Assembly (NCBI GenBank): GCA_044344975.1
Contig: JBIJBY010000001.1
Coordinates: 1-51,150 of the forward strand
Direction of reading: 5' to 3'
Length of the DNA stretch: 51,150 bases
Source of the DNA: Candidatus Nanopelagicaceae bacterium
Lineage (GTDB): Bacteria > Actinomycetota > Actinomycetes > Nanopelagicales > Nanopelagicaceae
This document shows, piece by piece, positions 19,865-31,909 of the stretch; position 1 is the first letter of the stretch; each line of letters begins with the position of its first letter. The notes beneath the pieces are model-generated. The model did not search any database, was not told the DNA's origin, and was given only the letters and a program-made list of their open reading frames with translations. Made by a program: the position numbers and the translations under genes.

Positions 19865-21154
19865 TTAAACGCGAATAAAAGAATTAAGCGTTTTTGCAAT
19901 TAGCGATGGGCGGTGAGTTAGCGCCTCTTCGCGATCTGCTAAATCTGTCGCAAAGACGCTGCCATTTACACCTAACCAACGTAGGGGCTCTGGCTCCCAC
20001 ATCGGACTCTGCCAATTCACATGAGGTAGCGAAGAGATGGGATGTGTGCGCTCTAGAATTAAATGCGCCAACGTTTTACCCGATAAATGGGAGAGCGTCA
20101 CTCCATCGCCTGAGTAGCCACCCGCTTTTCCGATACCGCTTCCTTTATCCCAATGAATGTACGGGTGCCAATCGCGGGGGATAGAAACTGCTCCACCCCA
20201 GCGGTGAGTGAAGCGCACCCTCTTTAAAATAGGGAACCAATCCCGAGCTAGCTCAATAATTTCCATGTGCGTGCGATGATCCATCTCGTGTTTTCTCTGC
20301 AAGCGGGAGCCAAAGAGATAACGTGCGCCGCGACCGCCAATTGCTAATCGATTATCCAGGGTACGTTGGCCATAGTTCACAAGATGGAGCGCTTCAGCAA
20401 AAGTTTCGCGATGGCGTAGCCCAATTTCCTCCCAAACTTCTTCAGCGAGCGGTTCAGTTGCCACCATTAACGAGTAAATCGGCGCGTGCTGGCGCGCTTT
20501 CTGTGAGAAAACTTCCGTTGCTTTGATGATGGAGGTGGCGCGGAGGCTTCCTTTTGCGGTTTTTATCAGAGTTGGTTCGATTGTAAGAGCGCGGCTATTT
20601 TCATAAATTCGTAGGCCATTTTTCTCGAGGTATTGCGCAAGCGCCCGGACTAAACGCCCTGGATGAATCACTGCGCAATCCGGGGTGAAGGTGCCGCCCA
20701 GGCTATTTCGCATTTTGATTCGCGAATTCATCTCTTCTTGACTTAATAATGTGGCATCGCGCGAGAGTGTTTCGCGAAGGCGAGAGAGTTGTGCTCGATT
20801 GCGCGCGATGGTGAGCGTGCCGCTCTTTACGAAGCCACTCTCAGGTGCATGGCTATGTGCAAAGGCGCCAATCTCATCTATCGATTGAAGAAGATGAGGT
20901 CGCACTTGCTCATAACCGGCAGAGGTTGGGTAGAGCGCAGAGCACCAACCACCATTTCGGCCGCTAGCGCCAAAACCAATTCGCTCTCCCTCAAGTATCA
21001 CGATGCGAAGTGAAGGGTCGAGCTCCTTCAAATAATAGGCAGACCAAAGTCCAGTGAATCCACCGCCAACAATTGCAACGTCTGCATCACTGTTGCCAAG
21101 AAGTGGTGGGCGCTGCTCATCGTTGTAGAGCAAAGTATCGCTCCAGAGGTTCAT
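19865..21154 (-). CDS. FAD-dependent oxidoreductase, PuuB/OrdL (DAO) family
   Basis: IVGGGFTGL, GASGRNGG, HPGRL, GYSGDGV, WEPEPLRW. Start at MNLWSD via an ATGA overlap with the upstream gene. Confidence 0.88.
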   Translation of the reverse strand: MNLWSDTLLYNDEQRPPLLGNSDADVAIVGGGFTGLWSAYYLKELDPSLRIVILEGERIGFGASGRNGGWCSALYPTSAGYEQVRPHLLQSIDEIGAFAHSHAPESGFVKSGTLTIARNRAQLSRLRETLSRDATLLSQEEMNSRIKMRNSLGGTFTPDCAVIHPGRLVRALAQYLEKNGLRIYENSRALTIEPTLIKTAKGSLRATSIIKATEVFSQKARQHAPIYSLMVATEPLAEEVWEEIGLRHRETFAEALHLVNYGQRTLDNRLAIGGRGARYLFGSRLQRKHEMDHRTHMEIIELARDWFPILKRVRFTHRWGGAVSIPRDWHPYIHWDKGSGIGKAGGYSGDGVTLSHLSGKTLAHLILERTHPISSLPHVNWQSPMWEPEPLRWLGVNGSVFATDLADREEALTHRPSLIAKTLNSFIRV

Positions 21155-21819
21155 GTCCGTCCTTCTGGCCATTCCTTGAGATATTCCGGGAGCGGGTGCG
21201 CAACAGTCATGCGCGGGTCGGGAACTGGAGCGCCGTAGCGATGCTCGATAGGAACATTTCCTGCCCACACCGGCCATGAGAGATCTTCTTCCTCATCTGC
21301 CGGAAATTTAGAAGAGATTTTGACGCTCGCTTCTTCTAAAGAGAGGGTGAGAATTGTGGTCTGCTTAATCTCTTTCTCGGTTGTCGGGCGCAGTGACTCG
21401 CGCCGGCCAGGAAGTAAGTGATCAGTTAGCCTCTCGAATGCACGCTCTTTTGCTACACCCTCAAGTTCCAAAGCTTTGCCGAGCACAAGAGCGCTTCGAT
21501 AGTTCATGGATGATTCGAAGGCAGAGCGTGCGAGCACTAACGCATCGAGAATCGTTACGGATACGGCGCATGAAGCTCCACTAGCGAGAATTTTGAAGAG
21601 GCGGGAAGCCTTCGAACCATGGAGCAATAGCGACTCCCCATCACGCGCGATTGCAACAGGGATAACGAAGGGTTGATCTTCATGGACAAATCCCACGTGA
21701 CCAACCAACGCAGCATCGAGTATTTGATAGAGAGCTTGCCTATCTTTAACCTCTTTATGCGGTATCCGATGGAGCGTTGTTCTCTTGGTTACACCTAGGG
21801 GCGCGTTCGAAGATTCCAT
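21151..21819 (-). CDS. Pyridoxamine 5'-phosphate oxidase-like (NimA-type) flavin-binding protein
   Basis: GHVGF, PFVIP, LHGSKASR, LVLARSAFESSMNYRS, WAG motifs. Confidence 0.85.
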   Translation of the reverse strand: MESSNAPLGVTKRTTLHRIPHKEVKDRQALYQILDAALVGHVGFVHEDQPFVIPVAIARDGESLLLHGSKASRLFKILASGASCAVSVTILDALVLARSAFESSMNYRSALVLGKALELEGVAKERAFERLTDHLLPGRRESLRPTTEKEIKQTTILTLSLEEASVKISSKFPADEEEDLSWPVWAGNVPIEHRYGAPVPDPRMTVAHPLPEYLKEWPEGRT

Positions 21820-27658: not shown

Positions 27659-28558
27659 ATGGCGATAGCGCACGTTTCACCTGGCACCAGTACCCATGTG
27701 AACCCAACGCGCACCGGCAGAAAAATTCCTTACCTGCTCATGTTGCCGGGATTACTTTGGCTCGCAGTTTTTTTCATTTATCCGCTGATTAATTTGGCAG
27801 AAACTTCCACCAAAACACGTGCCGAGTCTCAAGAGACTGGTGCATTTGTTCAAACGTATCGATTTGCTAATTACTTAGATGCCTTTGTTGAATACCAAGA
27901 TCAATTTATTCGCTCCTTTACCTATGCATTGATGGCGACACTTCTGGCGCTAGCCATCTCCTACCCATTGGCATATGCGATTGCCTTCAAGGCTGGTCGC
28001 TATAAGAACATTCTTTTGATTCTCGTAATTGCGCCATTTTTCACCTCTTTTCTTCTTCGGACCATTGCCTGGAAACAAATTCTTGGCGCTGAAGGTCCTG
28101 TTATTTACCTCCTCCGCTCGCTGCACCTAATAGGTCCAGATACGACGATTACAGCATCATCTTTTGCCGTCGTAATGGGGTTGACCTACAACTTCTTGCC
28201 CTTTATGACGCTGCCAATTTATGCGAGTTTGGATCGGATCGATCCTCGATTGCTCGAGGCTTCCGGGGATTTGTATTCAAACGGGCTAACAACTTTTCGC
28301 AAGGTAACTGTGCCACTTTCTATGCCTGGTGTAGTGGCGGGAACGTTACTAACGTTTATTCCAGCAGCCGGGGATTACATCAATGCTGCAATTTTGGGAA
28401 ATCCAACGACAAAAATGATTGGGAATGTTATCGACTCTCGCTTCTTCAGAATCGTGGATTATCCAACTGCGGCCTCGCTCTCATTCACTTTGATGGCAGC
28501 AATTTTGCTCATGGTCGTCATTTACATTCGCCGCTCTGGAACAGATGAGTTGGTGTGA
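27659..28558 (+). CDS. Polyamine ABC transporter permease (PotB-like)
   Basis: ISYPLAY, PFFTSFLLR, EAA loop LLEASGDL. Confidence 0.9.
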   Translation: MAIAHVSPGTSTHVNPTRTGRKIPYLLMLPGLLWLAVFFIYPLINLAETSTKTRAESQETGAFVQTYRFANYLDAFVEYQDQFIRSFTYALMATLLALAISYPLAYAIAFKAGRYKNILLILVIAPFFTSFLLRTIAWKQILGAEGPVIYLLRSLHLIGPDTTITASSFAVVMGLTYNFLPFMTLPIYASLDRIDPRLLEASGDLYSNGLTTFRKVTVPLSMPGVVAGTLLTFIPAAGDYINAAILGNPTTKMIGNVIDSRFFRIVDYPTAASLSFTLMAAILLMVVIYIRRSGTDELV

Positions 28559-29355
28559 TCAAGATGAGTAGATGGTTTTCGCGTAACTTAATCCGAATTT
28601 ATGCAGGCTTGGCGCTAATTTATCTTTTTATTCCAGTTGGCTACACCATGGCCTTTTCCTTTAATGACGCGGGCAAGCGAAATATTAATTGGCAAGGATT
28701 TACTCTCGACAATTGGAAGAACCCCTGTGGCGCTCCAGATATCTGCGTTGCCCTTGGCAATTCTCTAAAAATTGGTTTCCTCTCAACATTAGTTGCCACA
28801 ATCTTGGGAACAATGATTGCGTTTGCCCTAGGTCGATATAAATTTCGAGGTAGAAGTGCGACCAATCTCTTAATTTTCTTACCGATGGCTACACCTGAAA
28901 TTGTCATGGGAGCCTCGCTCCTTGCAATGTTTGTCAATATGAATGTGAATACGGGTTTCTGGACCACTGTCATCGCACACATCATGTTCTGTATCTCCTT
29001 CGTTGTTGTCACAGTCAAGGCGCGCGTTGCAAGTCTTGACCCCAAACTTGAAGAGGCGGCGCGCGATCTTTACGCCAATGAATTTGAAACTTTTAGAAGA
29101 GTAACTTTTCCTCTGGTTCTTCCGGGAATTGCGGCAGCTGCACTTCTTGCCTTCTCGCTCTCTTTTGATGATTTCATCATTACCAATTTCAACTCTGGGA
29201 CGATTACCACCTTTCCTAAATTTGTCTGGATTTCCTCCATTAGGGGGGTTCCTGCTCAGGCGAATGTCATTGGTACGGCAATGTTCTTGATAGCGCTAGC
29301 AATAGTTGTCGTGGCTCAGGTGGTTGGAAATGCCAAAGCGAGAAAAAACCGATAA
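28555..29355 (+). CDS. Polyamine ABC transporter permease (PotC-like)
   Basis: FSFN, TPEIVMG, LEEAARDL, FSLSFDDF; GTGA overlap with the previous gene. Confidence 0.9.
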   Translation: MIKMSRWFSRNLIRIYAGLALIYLFIPVGYTMAFSFNDAGKRNINWQGFTLDNWKNPCGAPDICVALGNSLKIGFLSTLVATILGTMIAFALGRYKFRGRSATNLLIFLPMATPEIVMGASLLAMFVNMNVNTGFWTTVIAHIMFCISFVVVTVKARVASLDPKLEEAARDLYANEFETFRRVTFPLVLPGIAAAALLAFSLSFDDFIITNFNSGTITTFPKFVWISSIRGVPAQANVIGTAMFLIALAIVVVAQVVGNAKARKNR

Positions 29356-29368
29356 AGTCTGAGCTAAG

Positions 29369-29497
29369 CCATTACGAAGAACCAACTGAGACTGGTTGGG
29401 GTAATGGGGTAGGACTCCGGAGGACCCGGGCCCGCTGTAAGTAGAAGTTAAGGGGTGAATCCGGCTTGTAGCCGGATATTTCGATGGCCACCATCGA
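29369..29497 (+). promoter_or_regulatory. Highly structured intergenic leader, candidate cis-regulatory RNA
   Basis: Four hairpins: 29369-29407, 29417-29429, 29459-29477 and 29481-29497. The last one contains the ATG. Confidence 0.5.
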
Positions 29498-30896
29498 CCC
29501 ACGAATCGTTCGCCACCTCAAAGATGCTCAGCCAGATTTATATTGGCTCGATGCCGATCCACTAGAACCAAGCGCACACTCTGCGTTATTTGGCGAGGTC
29601 CACGCAGATTTAGCAATCGTCGGCGCGGGGTATACCGGACTATGGACAGCGCTCCTGGCAAAAGAGAAACATCCAGAGTGGCGTGTGATCATCATTGAAA
29701 TGCGCGAAACTGGCGCGGGCGCATCAGGTCGAAATGGTGGTTTCTGTAACTATTCACTTACTCATGGATGGACAAACGGCAAGCGACGTTTTCCTGATGA
29801 GATGGAAGTGATTTCACGTTTAGGTCGCGAGAATCTAGAAGCAATTGAAGAGACGATTAAGCGCTACAACATCCAATGTAATTGGGAGTGGACTGGCGAG
29901 TTGCGCGTTGCAATCGAACCTTGGCAGTTAGAGGGAATGCGCGAGGAAGCCGATGAGCGCAACCGCATTGGTGATGACGTTGAATTTCTCGATAAAGCGG
30001 CGGTTCAAGAGCGCGTGCATTCTCCAATCTATGAAGGTGGCTTATTTGATCACGATGGAACGGCGCTCGTTGATCCTGCCCGTTTGGTCTGGGGATTAGA
30101 GAAAGCCTGCCTTGCCCTCGGTGTGCAGATCTTTGAAAATTCACAGGTGCAATGGTTAGAGAACGTTGAAGATGGAGTTCTGTTACATACCGCGTATGGT
30201 TTTGCTAAAGCGCCTAGAGTTGCCTTAGCAACAAACGTTTTCCCATCGCTTCAAAAGAAGTTAAAGAATTATGTCGTTCCGGTATATGACTATCAAATTG
30301 TGACTGAACCACTTTCAAAAGAGCAATTGCAAAGTATTGGTTGGTCTGAGCGCGAAGGAATTTCAGATTCGGGCCATCAATTCCATTACTACCGATTGAC
30401 TGATGACAATTGTATTGTTTGGGGTGGCTGGGATGCGATTTACAATTTTCGTGGTCGAGTTGCACGCGAATATGAATTCCGACCAGAAACATACGTGAAG
30501 TTAGTCGATCATTTCTTAAAGACCTTCCCACAACTCGAAGGAATCAAATTTACTCATGCATGGGGTGGAGCGATCGATACCTGTACACGCTTCTCACCAT
30601 TTTGGAACTTATCGAAAGATGGTCGTGTAGTGAGTGTTCTTGGCTATACCGGCCTTGGCGTTGCTGCAACGAGATTCGGCGCGCAAGTGATGCTTGATTT
30701 ATTGGATGGTGAGGATAACGAGCGAACTCGACTTGAGATGGTTCGACGGAAGCCGCTGCCATTCCCGCCTGAGCCTTTCCGATTCTTCTTCATTCAGATA
30801 ACACGCTGGTCTATTAATCGCGCTGATGAAAATGGCGGTAAACGAAATATTTGGCTACGTACGCTTGATCGCCTTGGGCTCGGATTCGATTCGTAA
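29484..30896 (+). CDS. FAD-dependent oxidoreductase, PuuB/OrdL family (polyamine oxidase-like)
   Basis: IVGAGYTGLWTA, GASGRNGG, VDPARL, HAWGGAID, GYTGLGV, PFPPEP, LGLGFDS. Confidence 0.9.
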   Translation: MATIDPRIVRHLKDAQPDLYWLDADPLEPSAHSALFGEVHADLAIVGAGYTGLWTALLAKEKHPEWRVIIIEMRETGAGASGRNGGFCNYSLTHGWTNGKRRFPDEMEVISRLGRENLEAIEETIKRYNIQCNWEWTGELRVAIEPWQLEGMREEADERNRIGDDVEFLDKAAVQERVHSPIYEGGLFDHDGTALVDPARLVWGLEKACLALGVQIFENSQVQWLENVEDGVLLHTAYGFAKAPRVALATNVFPSLQKKLKNYVVPVYDYQIVTEPLSKEQLQSIGWSEREGISDSGHQFHYYRLTDDNCIVWGGWDAIYNFRGRVAREYEFRPETYVKLVDHFLKTFPQLEGIKFTHAWGGAIDTCTRFSPFWNLSKDGRVVSVLGYTGLGVAATRFGAQVMLDLLDGEDNERTRLEMVRRKPLPFPPEPFRFFFIQITRWSINRADENGGKRNIWLRTLDRLGLGFDS

Positions 30897-30910: not shown

Positions 30911-31909
30911 ATGGCAAACCATGGGAATCTCTACGGCCCAGATTTCACTTTTCTTGGAATACCACGTTGCGATCTTGATGATCCGCGTAGCTATCAAGGT
31001 TTAGATGTTGTGATTGTTGGCGCTCCAATAGATAGCGGTACTTCACATCGTTCAGGTGCGAAATTCGGACCGCAAGCAATTCGAATGGGCGATTACCTTC
31101 CCCACGATGGTGCGCGGCCACATCTCTCTCTTCGAGTAGATGCACTGCAGGATTTAAAGATTGCTGATGCAGGCGATCTCATGATGCCCCCTGGAAATCT
31201 AGAAGATTCACTCAAAGTTCTTAAAGAGGCGACAGAGAAGATCTCCCGTGCTGGCGCAATTGCTGTTGTACTTGGTGGTGATCATTCGATTGCCTCCGCC
31301 GATGTCGCAGGAATTGCAGCGCATCGAGGCAAGGGAAAAATCTCCATGATTCACTTCGATGCACATGCTGATACTGGTGATCTTCAAATGGGCGCGCTGG
31401 TGGGTCATGGCACCCCGATGCGTCGATTGATTGATGACGGATATGTGCGCGGTGATCGCTTCCTGCAATTAGGTTTACGTGGTTATTGGCCTGATGCTCG
31501 CACCCTTGACTGGATGCGTGATCAAGGTATGCGCTCTTACGAAATGACTGAGATACATCATCGCGGCTTGACGGCGGTGCTCGATGAATCGTTTGCCACT
31601 CTTACCAACGGGTGCGATGGCGTTTTTCTCTCGGTAGATATTGATGTAGTCGATCCCGGTATGGCACCTGGAACTGGCACGCCAGAACCGGGTGGCATGA
31701 CAAGTCGCGAACTCCTTGAAGCAGTTCGTCGTATCTGTCTTGAGCTACCGATTGTAGGGATTGATGTTGTAGAAGTTGCTCCACCATTTGATTCTGCTGA
31801 CATCACAGCAATACTTGCTAATCGAGTTGTTCTTGAAGCGCTAAGTGCCATCGCTAAACGAAAGATCGGCGCGACTTATTCACCGACGCAAAATCTATTA
31901 GATCGGTAG
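30911..31909 (+). CDS. speB: Agmatinase / ureohydrolase family protein
   Basis: GGDHS, DAHAD, GHGTP, SVDIDVVDP, APGTGTPEPGG. Substrate (agmatine versus guanidinobutyrate) not resolved. Confidence 0.82.
   Translation: MANHGNLYGPDFTFLGIPRCDLDDPRSYQGLDVVIVGAPIDSGTSHRSGAKFGPQAIRMGDYLPHDGARPHLSLRVDALQDLKIADAGDLMMPPGNLEDSLKVLKEATEKISRAGAIAVVLGGDHSIASADVAGIAAHRGKGKISMIHFDAHADTGDLQMGALVGHGTPMRRLIDDGYVRGDRFLQLGLRGYWPDARTLDWMRDQGMRSYEMTEIHHRGLTAVLDESFATLTNGCDGVFLSVDIDVVDPGMAPGTGTPEPGGMTSRELLEAVRRICLELPIVGIDVVEVAPPFDSADITAILANRVVLEALSAIAKRKIGATYSPTQNLLDR

Follow-up and report, generated by a model that had tools for sequence, protein, structure and literature searches.

Whether RNA can sense polyamines selectively is a long-disputed question. 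In the literature examined, just one polyamine riboswitch class is described, the spermidine riboswitch, a variant of the S-adenosylmethionine-I (SAM-I) riboswitch that has a four-stem fold and represses biosynthesis genes, being turned OFF by transcription termination (PMC10853860; this and the other papers cited by PMC number are cited from excerpts). In E. coli, the leaders of the polyamine modulon (OppA, RMF, CpxR and RpoE) have a Shine-Dalgarno (SD) sequence distant from the AUG and stems near the initiation region (PMC4191411). Orphan RNA motifs also precede polyamine-related genes, namely the ldcC motif (PMC5737381) and the potE and odc1 motifs (PMC8632094); the genes concerned encode decarboxylases, PotA and PotE, with potE found in Veillonella and odc1 in Alphaproteobacteria. 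Here, we analyse a leader within a window of 51,150 nucleotides (nt) from a Candidatus Nanopelagicaceae bacterium (contig JBIJBY010000001.1, positions 1 to 51,150). In this window, 128 nt separate the stop codon of a potC-like polyamine permease gene (29355) from the ATG (29484) of a gene encoding an oxidase dependent on flavin adenine dinucleotide (FAD). The spacer can be read directly as an outlier amid tight gene spacing, the remaining gaps within the co-directional run being 53, 2, 0, -4 and 14 nt. We conclude that the spacer holds a real cis-regulatory RNA motif that has apparently not been described before. Its range is narrow and it is linked to a single gene; it probably has its own promoter, and it includes a translational platform. 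We further propose, with belief and doubt evenly balanced, that this conserved and folded cis-element senses a polyamine, for example spermidine, as a riboswitch that turns translation ON, both the ligand and the direction of control being part of the proposal.

A preliminary description of the window, made from its letters alone, had drawn four hairpins in the spacer, and each of them is found where it was placed. H1 pairs CCATTAC (29369-29375) with GTAATGG (29401-29407) and encloses CCAAC (29382-29386) paired to GTTGG (29395-29399). H2 spans 29417-29429, H3 29459-29477 and H4 29481-29497, with an ACCC at 29424-29427 and an SD-like AAGGGGTGA at 29450-29458. To these we add a helix P2, a -10-type box at 29353-29358 and a possible pairing of the SD with another ACCC at 29497-29500. 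The description had judged the whole a structured cis-element over the ribosome-binding site and a good riboswitch candidate. This judgement has gained in strength from sequence conservation, from covariation in H1 and from the lack of a match in Rfam 15, where no family hits the element at gathering score or at E up to 10. The families for which it had proposed a check, ydaO-yuaA and guanidine I-IV, give no match on the element.

The element belongs to one family of bacteria. A protein search of 61 related genomes recovered 24 oxidase loci of the family, 21 with readable upstream DNA, and the element precedes the oxidase in 19 of these 21; it is absent at the six oxidase loci that the same search found in other families. 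A covariance model matched 64 of 151 family genomes with one copy in each (57 strong and 6 weak matches). Among 151 genomes of the class it gave only two weak matches outside the family, both inside open reading frames (ORFs), and 31 outgroup oxidase loci showed no convincing element and no intermediate form. A pattern scan of species genomes returned at least 119 matches. Among the 119 listed, 62 had neither hairpin nor oxidase and were discarded as chance, two (L074 and L084) had the hairpin without the oxidase and were dropped, and three were ended by contig edges. With a looser pattern in metagenomes, 27 of the 120 matches listed are the element and 93 are not. All 27 carry the full core described below, although the pattern did not demand it, and the oxidase start follows in every one whose contig extends that far. 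Our first alignment had 64 rows, from the genome pattern matches and the protein-found loci; the enlarged one has 96 rows and 87 distinct sequences, all from Nanopelagicaceae. Named records bearing the element include Candidatus Planktophila and Candidatus Nanopelagicus. Some assemblies titled Bifidobacterium or Streptomycetaceae also have this locus (L036, L050, L053, L060, L061, L080, L101 and L112); where included on the oxidase tree these rows group inside the family, hence their labels are probably wrong. In view of the single copy per genome we reject a repeat or mobile element, and the element was not found in the viral contigs searched.

A 15-nt core, TCCGGAGGACCCGGG (29416-29430), is identical in 87 of 87 rows. 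Part of these rows was retrieved by a pattern containing most of the core, and the same invariance is seen in the protein-found, model-found and loose-pattern sets. The core lies in the P2-P3 hairpin (29408-29436, + strand), our predicted sensing domain. P2 (29408-29413 with 29431-29436) sits beneath H2, and H2, or P3, is therefore the tip of a longer hairpin. Upstream of it, H1, hereafter P1 (29369-29407, + strand), is built of two helices stacked on each other; its internal loop is 6x1 and its terminal loop varies. On its own, the sequence folds moderately better than chance (z -2.1, 3 of 200 shuffles equally good). In the alignment, 92% of the cells are paired and the covariation score is 0.306, against 0.159 when shuffled and at most 0.095 when slid. 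Both-sided changes occur at 12 of the 13 pairs of P1. Four of these pairs (29372:29404, 29373:29403, 29384:29397 and 29386:29395) score above all values of a tree-aware null that was custom-made in the manner of R-scape with 60 replicates, and each of the four has double changes on 3-6 branches. The alignment of orthologous spacers suggested in the preliminary description was thus fruitful, with four P1 pairs beyond the null in 87 distinct sequences. P2, P3, H3 and H4 are individually not significant; the P3 pairs and the CCGG arms of H3 never vary, so that neither provides covariation information. We thus observe a conserved core together with covarying helices, as is expected of a riboswitch. 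Since G-U cells outnumber A-C cells by 377 to 84, the folded molecule is the + strand RNA.

A leader peptide was considered in the same region and rejected, because AUG-GGG-UAG at 29404-29412 is not conserved and the core lacks third-position variation. At four loci of one genus (L015, L016, L045 and L098), an ATG lies 7 nt after the core GGAGG and opens a five-codon ORF that ends at the SD; this ORF was not observed outside the genus. The stretch 29406-29475 has several GG tracts, of which three are invariant, and a two-tier G-quadruplex is conceivable in principle, with paired C runs as competitors.

The 3' part of the element covers the site of translation initiation. The SD AAGGGGTGA (29450-29458, + strand) lies 24-28 nt from the start codon in 86 rows, and the 16S tail GATCACCTCC, which is the anti-SD, was found in three of three complete relatives. 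Between SD and AUG stands H3 (29459-29477, + strand), a CCGG/CCGG hairpin with a variable loop. All 86 rows scored have it, and its arms are preceded by 4-5 nt and followed by 6-9 nt. The hairpin absorbs the excess spacing and leaves 10-14 nt between SD and AUG; it is predicted to bring the SD within reach of the start codon. A lineage whose 5' domain is deleted has retained H3, and also the SD in the form GAGGTGAT. H4, together with the ACCC at 29497-29500 that may pair with the SD, occupies 29481-29500 (+ strand) and includes the AUG (29484-29486). That H4 buries the start codon was already claimed from the sequence, and folding of 86 rows predicts a leader repressed by default, the mean unpaired probability being 0.03 for the AUG and 0.16 for the SD. 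Codon usage provides separate support for H4. With CG ahead of the start, codon 4 is ATC in every one of 80 rows, whereas in a clade with CC in this place, which breaks H4, just one of six rows has ATC. At other conserved sites, comparison Ile codons are mostly ATT, with ATC in 19 of 61, 17 of 68 and 18 of 72. Codon 5 is GAC in 75 of 79 rows, but GAC is used in just 18-27 of about 80 rows at other Asp sites, as would be expected if the ACCC pairs with the SD. For the present sequence, a three-way junction closed by this pairing has a free energy of -45.5 kcal/mol, versus -42.3 kcal/mol with the SD free. The expression platform, whose switching is predicted, overlaps both SD and start codon, as is expected of a riboswitch.

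It had been suggested that the element lies between cistrons and uncouples catabolism from uptake, or that it is an RNase-processing element. The upstream sequences favour another view. A predicted -10 box, TAAAGT (29353-29358, + strand), overlaps the potC stop codon, and TANNNT is the actinobacterial -10 consensus. In all 85 distinct upstream sequences, TANNNT starts 13-18 nt ahead of P1, whereas equal windows further upstream have it in 0-10 of 85. The potC stop often supplies the TA of the box where potC adjoins; among the listed rows, 16 were checked to have a gene other than potC upstream, and all of these have TANNNT as well. The conserved box indicates that the element is probably the 5' untranslated region of the oxidase's own transcript and not a processing spacer. 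Hence, the element is likely to be the whole 5' leader of that transcript, with a putative start near 29365. RNA-library contigs from two studies start at 29386 and 29395 (depth 13.9 and 31.9), providing nearly all the cover in their bin, with almost none just upstream. They hint weakly at a separate transcript, being contigs without a DNA control and neither start sites nor levels. At the outgroup oxidases L362, L365, L374 and L376, (C/G)ATACT is found about 8 nt before an SD of the form GAGGTGAG or AAGGGGTGAG, a hint that the internal promoter may be older than the RNA element.

In the light of these data, it is very improbable that the element acts within the pot operon as a terminator between cistrons, an RNase-processing site or a DNA operator. 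CCGG-N5-CCGG is indeed an inverted repeat in DNA, and in a third RNA library a single contig spans 29270-29617, from potC to the oxidase. This shows that read-through (or DNA) occurs, the libraries lacking a DNA control, and it counts against a separate transcript. However, no terminator-like site was found on the + strand, the core occurs once in the genome when up to one mismatch is allowed, and the excess of G-U over A-C pairs points to RNA. In addition, the element stays with the oxidase after potC is gone: at 17 element-bearing loci examined, potC is not upstream, and most of these also lack the agmatinase downstream. The oxidase is the sole constant partner of the element. A PotD homolog is present in five of five element-bearing genomes in which potC is not upstream, and an Lrp/AsnC regulator was found in one of five element-bearing genomes searched, which led us to reject the element as an operator of this neighbouring protein.

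The element has been lost repeatedly. On a quick tree of the oxidase (99 rows, first 190 residues), the core is present in 82 rows and missing in 17, four of which are outgroups, leaving 13 of 95 family rows without it. Its presence and absence imply nine label changes, at least six of them forced by strongly supported branches. In ten of the 13 family rows without the core, the TANNNT box is still present before a shortened leader: six have a clean deletion of P1-P3 with SD, H3 and start intact, and in the other four a distance of 9-15 nt separates the box from the start codon. The survival of the box suggests that the element is dispensable for expression, as expected of a regulatory module. 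To judge from these sequences, the element is old within the family and the oxidase gene can probably be expressed without it. Two further loci show other deletions. In L384 (G191), the leader and the oxidase start codon are apparently deleted and the potC stop is joined to codon 3-4; this oxidase may be a pseudogene. In L193 (G136), the end of potC has been joined to the SD by a deletion and its stop codon now lies within GGGGTGA, while H3 and H4 are decaying; here the oxidase looks translationally coupled to potC.

We propose the following mechanism for the ON switch. Transcription would start near 29365. By default, H4 and the SD:ACCC helix, in a three-way junction with H3 and H4, would conceal the SD and the AUG. 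Binding of a polyamine to the P1-P2-P3 domain and the conserved AGGGGUG segment would loosen the junction, upon which H3 could present the SD at 10-14 nt from the start codon. The oxidase would then be made only in the presence of its substrate. The direction is suggested by the position of a catabolic gene under a repressed leader. The ligand is suggested by the gene. Synteny makes the oxidase a likely ortholog of Streptomyces SCO5671, a PuuB/PauB-like enzyme: the Streptomyces homolog (56% identity) lies after potC, about 1.4 kb from Rfam Scr5676, and the gene order SCO5670-SCO5671 has been published (PMC9397018). Expression of sco5671 was reported with spermidine, and not with putrescine or cadaverine (PMC8998196). 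Among the ligands listed in the preliminary description, a polyamine is therefore favoured; a guanidino compound is less likely, because the agmatinase is not a constant neighbour. A stronger claim, to which we lean somewhat less than to its opposite, is that the element represents a new riboswitch class with its own fold, a selective sensor of a polyamine (or modified polyamine) that activates catabolism and possibly arose from half of a riboswitch for cyclic di-AMP (c-di-AMP) once the lineage no longer signalled with this messenger.

Several observations weigh against the ON switch. One gene family is controlled, and the ligand depends on inference from a single ortholog. Folding gave no ON conformation (pseudoknots were not scored), and all strand-swap folds are 12-21 kcal/mol worse. 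The helix between the SD and the coding ACCC has a mean probability of 0.29 and exceeds 0.5 in 18 of 86 rows. The P2 pair 29410:29434 is intact in 87 of 87 rows and occurs as three pair types, yet its covariation is not significant (E 4.6). The same holds for the H4 pair 29487:29491, which changes from G-C to U-A on four branches (E 101), and six rows without H4 have kept the core. This genome makes little use of SDs (86 of 610 ORFs), and 20 ORFs have an SD-like match just as far from the start. A generic sigma-70 scan found no promoter. Finally, the invariance of core and H3 suits a binding pocket, but a site for a protein, or an exchange of strands among the four CCGG, which are self-complementary, would explain it equally well.

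A protein site would mean that the leader is bound by a regulator, or by the oxidase itself, which controls translation through the invariant hairpin with the AGGAC loop. An invariant stem-loop without compensatory change is typical of sequence-specific recognition, and one target gene per genome suits autoregulation. We nevertheless regard this explanation as unlikely, given that the neighbouring Lrp/AsnC regulator was found in one of the five genomes; no candidate RNA-binding protein was found, and none was sought. Another rival is a translational OFF riboswitch, in which the ligand would stabilise a compact, possibly pseudoknotted fold with ACCC (29424-29427) paired to the SD, CCGG 29417-29420 paired to 29461-29464, and H3 broken. 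RNAalifold selected exactly these two helices for the alignment, where they are kept in 64 of 64 rows, and they would explain the invariance of the CCGG arms. Yet all the pairs are invariant and thus show no covariation, the nested form is about 18 kcal/mol worse, and one lineage with the full core has AGAGGTGA, which breaks a pair. The pairing of this ACCC with GGGU had been offered as an alternative in the preliminary description: it can form, but its mean probability in single sequences is 0.03 and it is broken in L198, L354 and L355. The same three loci led us to reject the idea that core pairing fixes the second G of the SD. As an OFF switch would also be odd for a catabolic gene, we find this reading improbable.

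Slightly more doubtful still is a constitutive structure for mRNA stability or low translation. Polyamines would then act at most non-specifically, on the distant-SD hairpins, as they do in the E. coli modulon; the core GGAGG might act as a start-less ribosome stand-by or stabilising site. SD-like sequences have been proposed as mRNA-stabilising sites. The strong 5' hairpin and the GGAGG at 29419-29423 fit such a role, as does the resemblance of a distant SD and GC-rich stems to modulon mRNAs (PMC4191411). However, it gives no need for 15 invariant positions across oxidases that are just 64-70% identical, nor for a P1 that varies freely with compensation when the core does not. The ON switch would have consequences beyond the locus: control of catabolism, and of nitrogen scavenging, at the RNA level in streamlined freshwater actinobacteria, the most abundant freshwater bacteria, where the Lrp/AsnC neighbour is often not found. 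The element is also well suited to tests, being an RNA short enough to synthesise for which the ligands to try form a clear list; nature supplies 87 variants of it and several deletion mutants.

A likeness to the c-di-AMP riboswitch (RF00379) had been pointed out from the sequence. It is visible to the eye and the order of parts is the same: in actinobacterial c-di-AMP aptamers, CCGGGGACCCA...GGGGUGAAUCCGG is followed by two hairpins and an ACCC, its CCC being paired to GGG, and the middle part of the element reads CGG(A/G)GGA(C/A)CC...GGGGUG, hairpin, hairpin and an ACCC able to pair to the GGG. But it is not significant, a full nhmmer profile of 31 actinobacterial aptamers giving E 67, and the element has neither the 5' GCCGAAU/P2 half-site nor the 3' strand GAACCC-GUCAGCUAAC-CCUCG. 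The absence of the 3' half had already been remarked upon; the oxidase coding sequence starts within the second hairpin and continues after ACCC 29497-29500. We therefore reject membership of this class; RF00379 gave no match at gathering score or at E up to 10. The geometry expected of it, GGGGUGAAU with two hairpins and a CCC pairing back, is present, but GGGGTGAA occurs, with GAA after GGGGT, in just 12 of 87 rows. No cyclase was found in the family either: PF02457 was detected in 0 of 151 family genomes (control positive in 11 of 14) and RF00379 in 0 of 101, against 54 of 61 class genomes. This tally includes G208, G198, G202, G042 and G196, flagged unpublished, and the class searches used the same pool. 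The family thus seems to have lost c-di-AMP signalling.

This loss raises a question of origin rather than mechanism, namely whether the element is a remnant of a c-di-AMP riboswitch that was repurposed afterwards, an aptamer outliving its second messenger. The loose metagenome pattern picked up a true aptamer with CGGAGGACCC (L298), and a two-block matrix places the locus second among 2.7 million positions. However, the top match of this matrix is a chance one inside a gene (contig C79), and the locus score of 23.9 (family median 18) is lower than that of all 28 true aptamers (28.8-40.9); the blocks, drawn from 28 of the 31 aptamers, were moreover selected after the likeness had been noticed. 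In the outgroup oxidase L362, AAGGGGTGAG serves as an ordinary SD and lies 9 nt upstream of an in-frame GTG. None of the 31 outgroup oxidase loci offers an intermediate, and no c-di-AMP aptamer was found in the 19 of them scanned against Rfam. We therefore consider such an origin unlikely. In G041, a 44% oxidase homolog is followed, about 300 bp downstream and on its own strand, by a c-di-AMP riboswitch (C1:5093065-5093222); as the riboswitch is not upstream of the homolog, it is probably unrelated.

The genes around the element form a polyamine uptake and catabolism cluster, with an aminotransferase, an Lrp/AsnC regulator, an aminobutyraldehyde dehydrogenase, a PotDABC-like transporter, the DAO-family oxidase, a ureohydrolase and GabT. 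The potC-like gene for a polyamine ATP-binding cassette permease (28555-29355, + strand) matches NCBIfam PotC PRK09500 at E 2e-63, under the curated cut-off. The predicted regulated gene, for the FAD-dependent oxidoreductase of the DAO family (29484-30896, + strand), matches PF01266 at E 3e-54. Its start is fixed by an in-frame stop four codons upstream, and against the PDB it gave nothing beyond weak L-amino acid deaminase matches. The ureohydrolase of the agmatinase or guanidinobutyrase type (30911-31909, + strand; NCBIfam agmatinase, under cut-off) is probably co-transcribed with the oxidase in this genome. Its DAHAD and HGTP motifs are as in guanidinobutyrase, whereas PDB 7esr and 9fek have DRHVD, a difference for which we reject a guanidine hydrolase. 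In the divergent part of the cluster lies another FAD oxidoreductase of the DAO family (19865-21277, - strand), with 31% identity to the regulated one; the covariance model matched the element no more than once in this genome. Elsewhere in the window, an Actino-pnp RNA (RF01688; 46818-46876, + strand; 57.2 bits) is the sole gathering-level Rfam match.

How does the element compare with the systems described so far? Searches of the open full-text literature brought up no account of the motif; subscription journals lay outside this scope, and supplements of PMC5737381 and PMC11109978 could list it. With guanidine-I to -IV riboswitches it shares, in this genome, a downstream ureohydrolase gene. 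We reject these classes, as none gives an Rfam match, the ureohydrolase has DAHAD and is often absent from the locus, and the ACGR loops of guanidine-II, whose absence had been remarked upon before, are replaced by AGGAC and variable loops. The ldcC, potE and odc1 motifs precede other genes and, in a comparison made without their consensus figures, nothing in Rfam matches the element at E up to 10. The spermidine riboswitch resembles it in proposed ligand class and in linkage to polyamine genes, but the element overlaps the SD and AUG and precedes a catabolic gene; with no SAM-family match in Rfam at E up to 10 and no + strand terminator, a SAM-I variant is rejected. The leaders of the E. coli polyamine modulon come close in another respect, as the SD of the element is also unusually far from the AUG; of the 86 SD-like matches in this genome, 65 are within 14 nt. 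The element differs from them in that a conserved hairpin bridges this gap, and in having an additional upstream domain with an invariant 15-nt core and a covarying P1.

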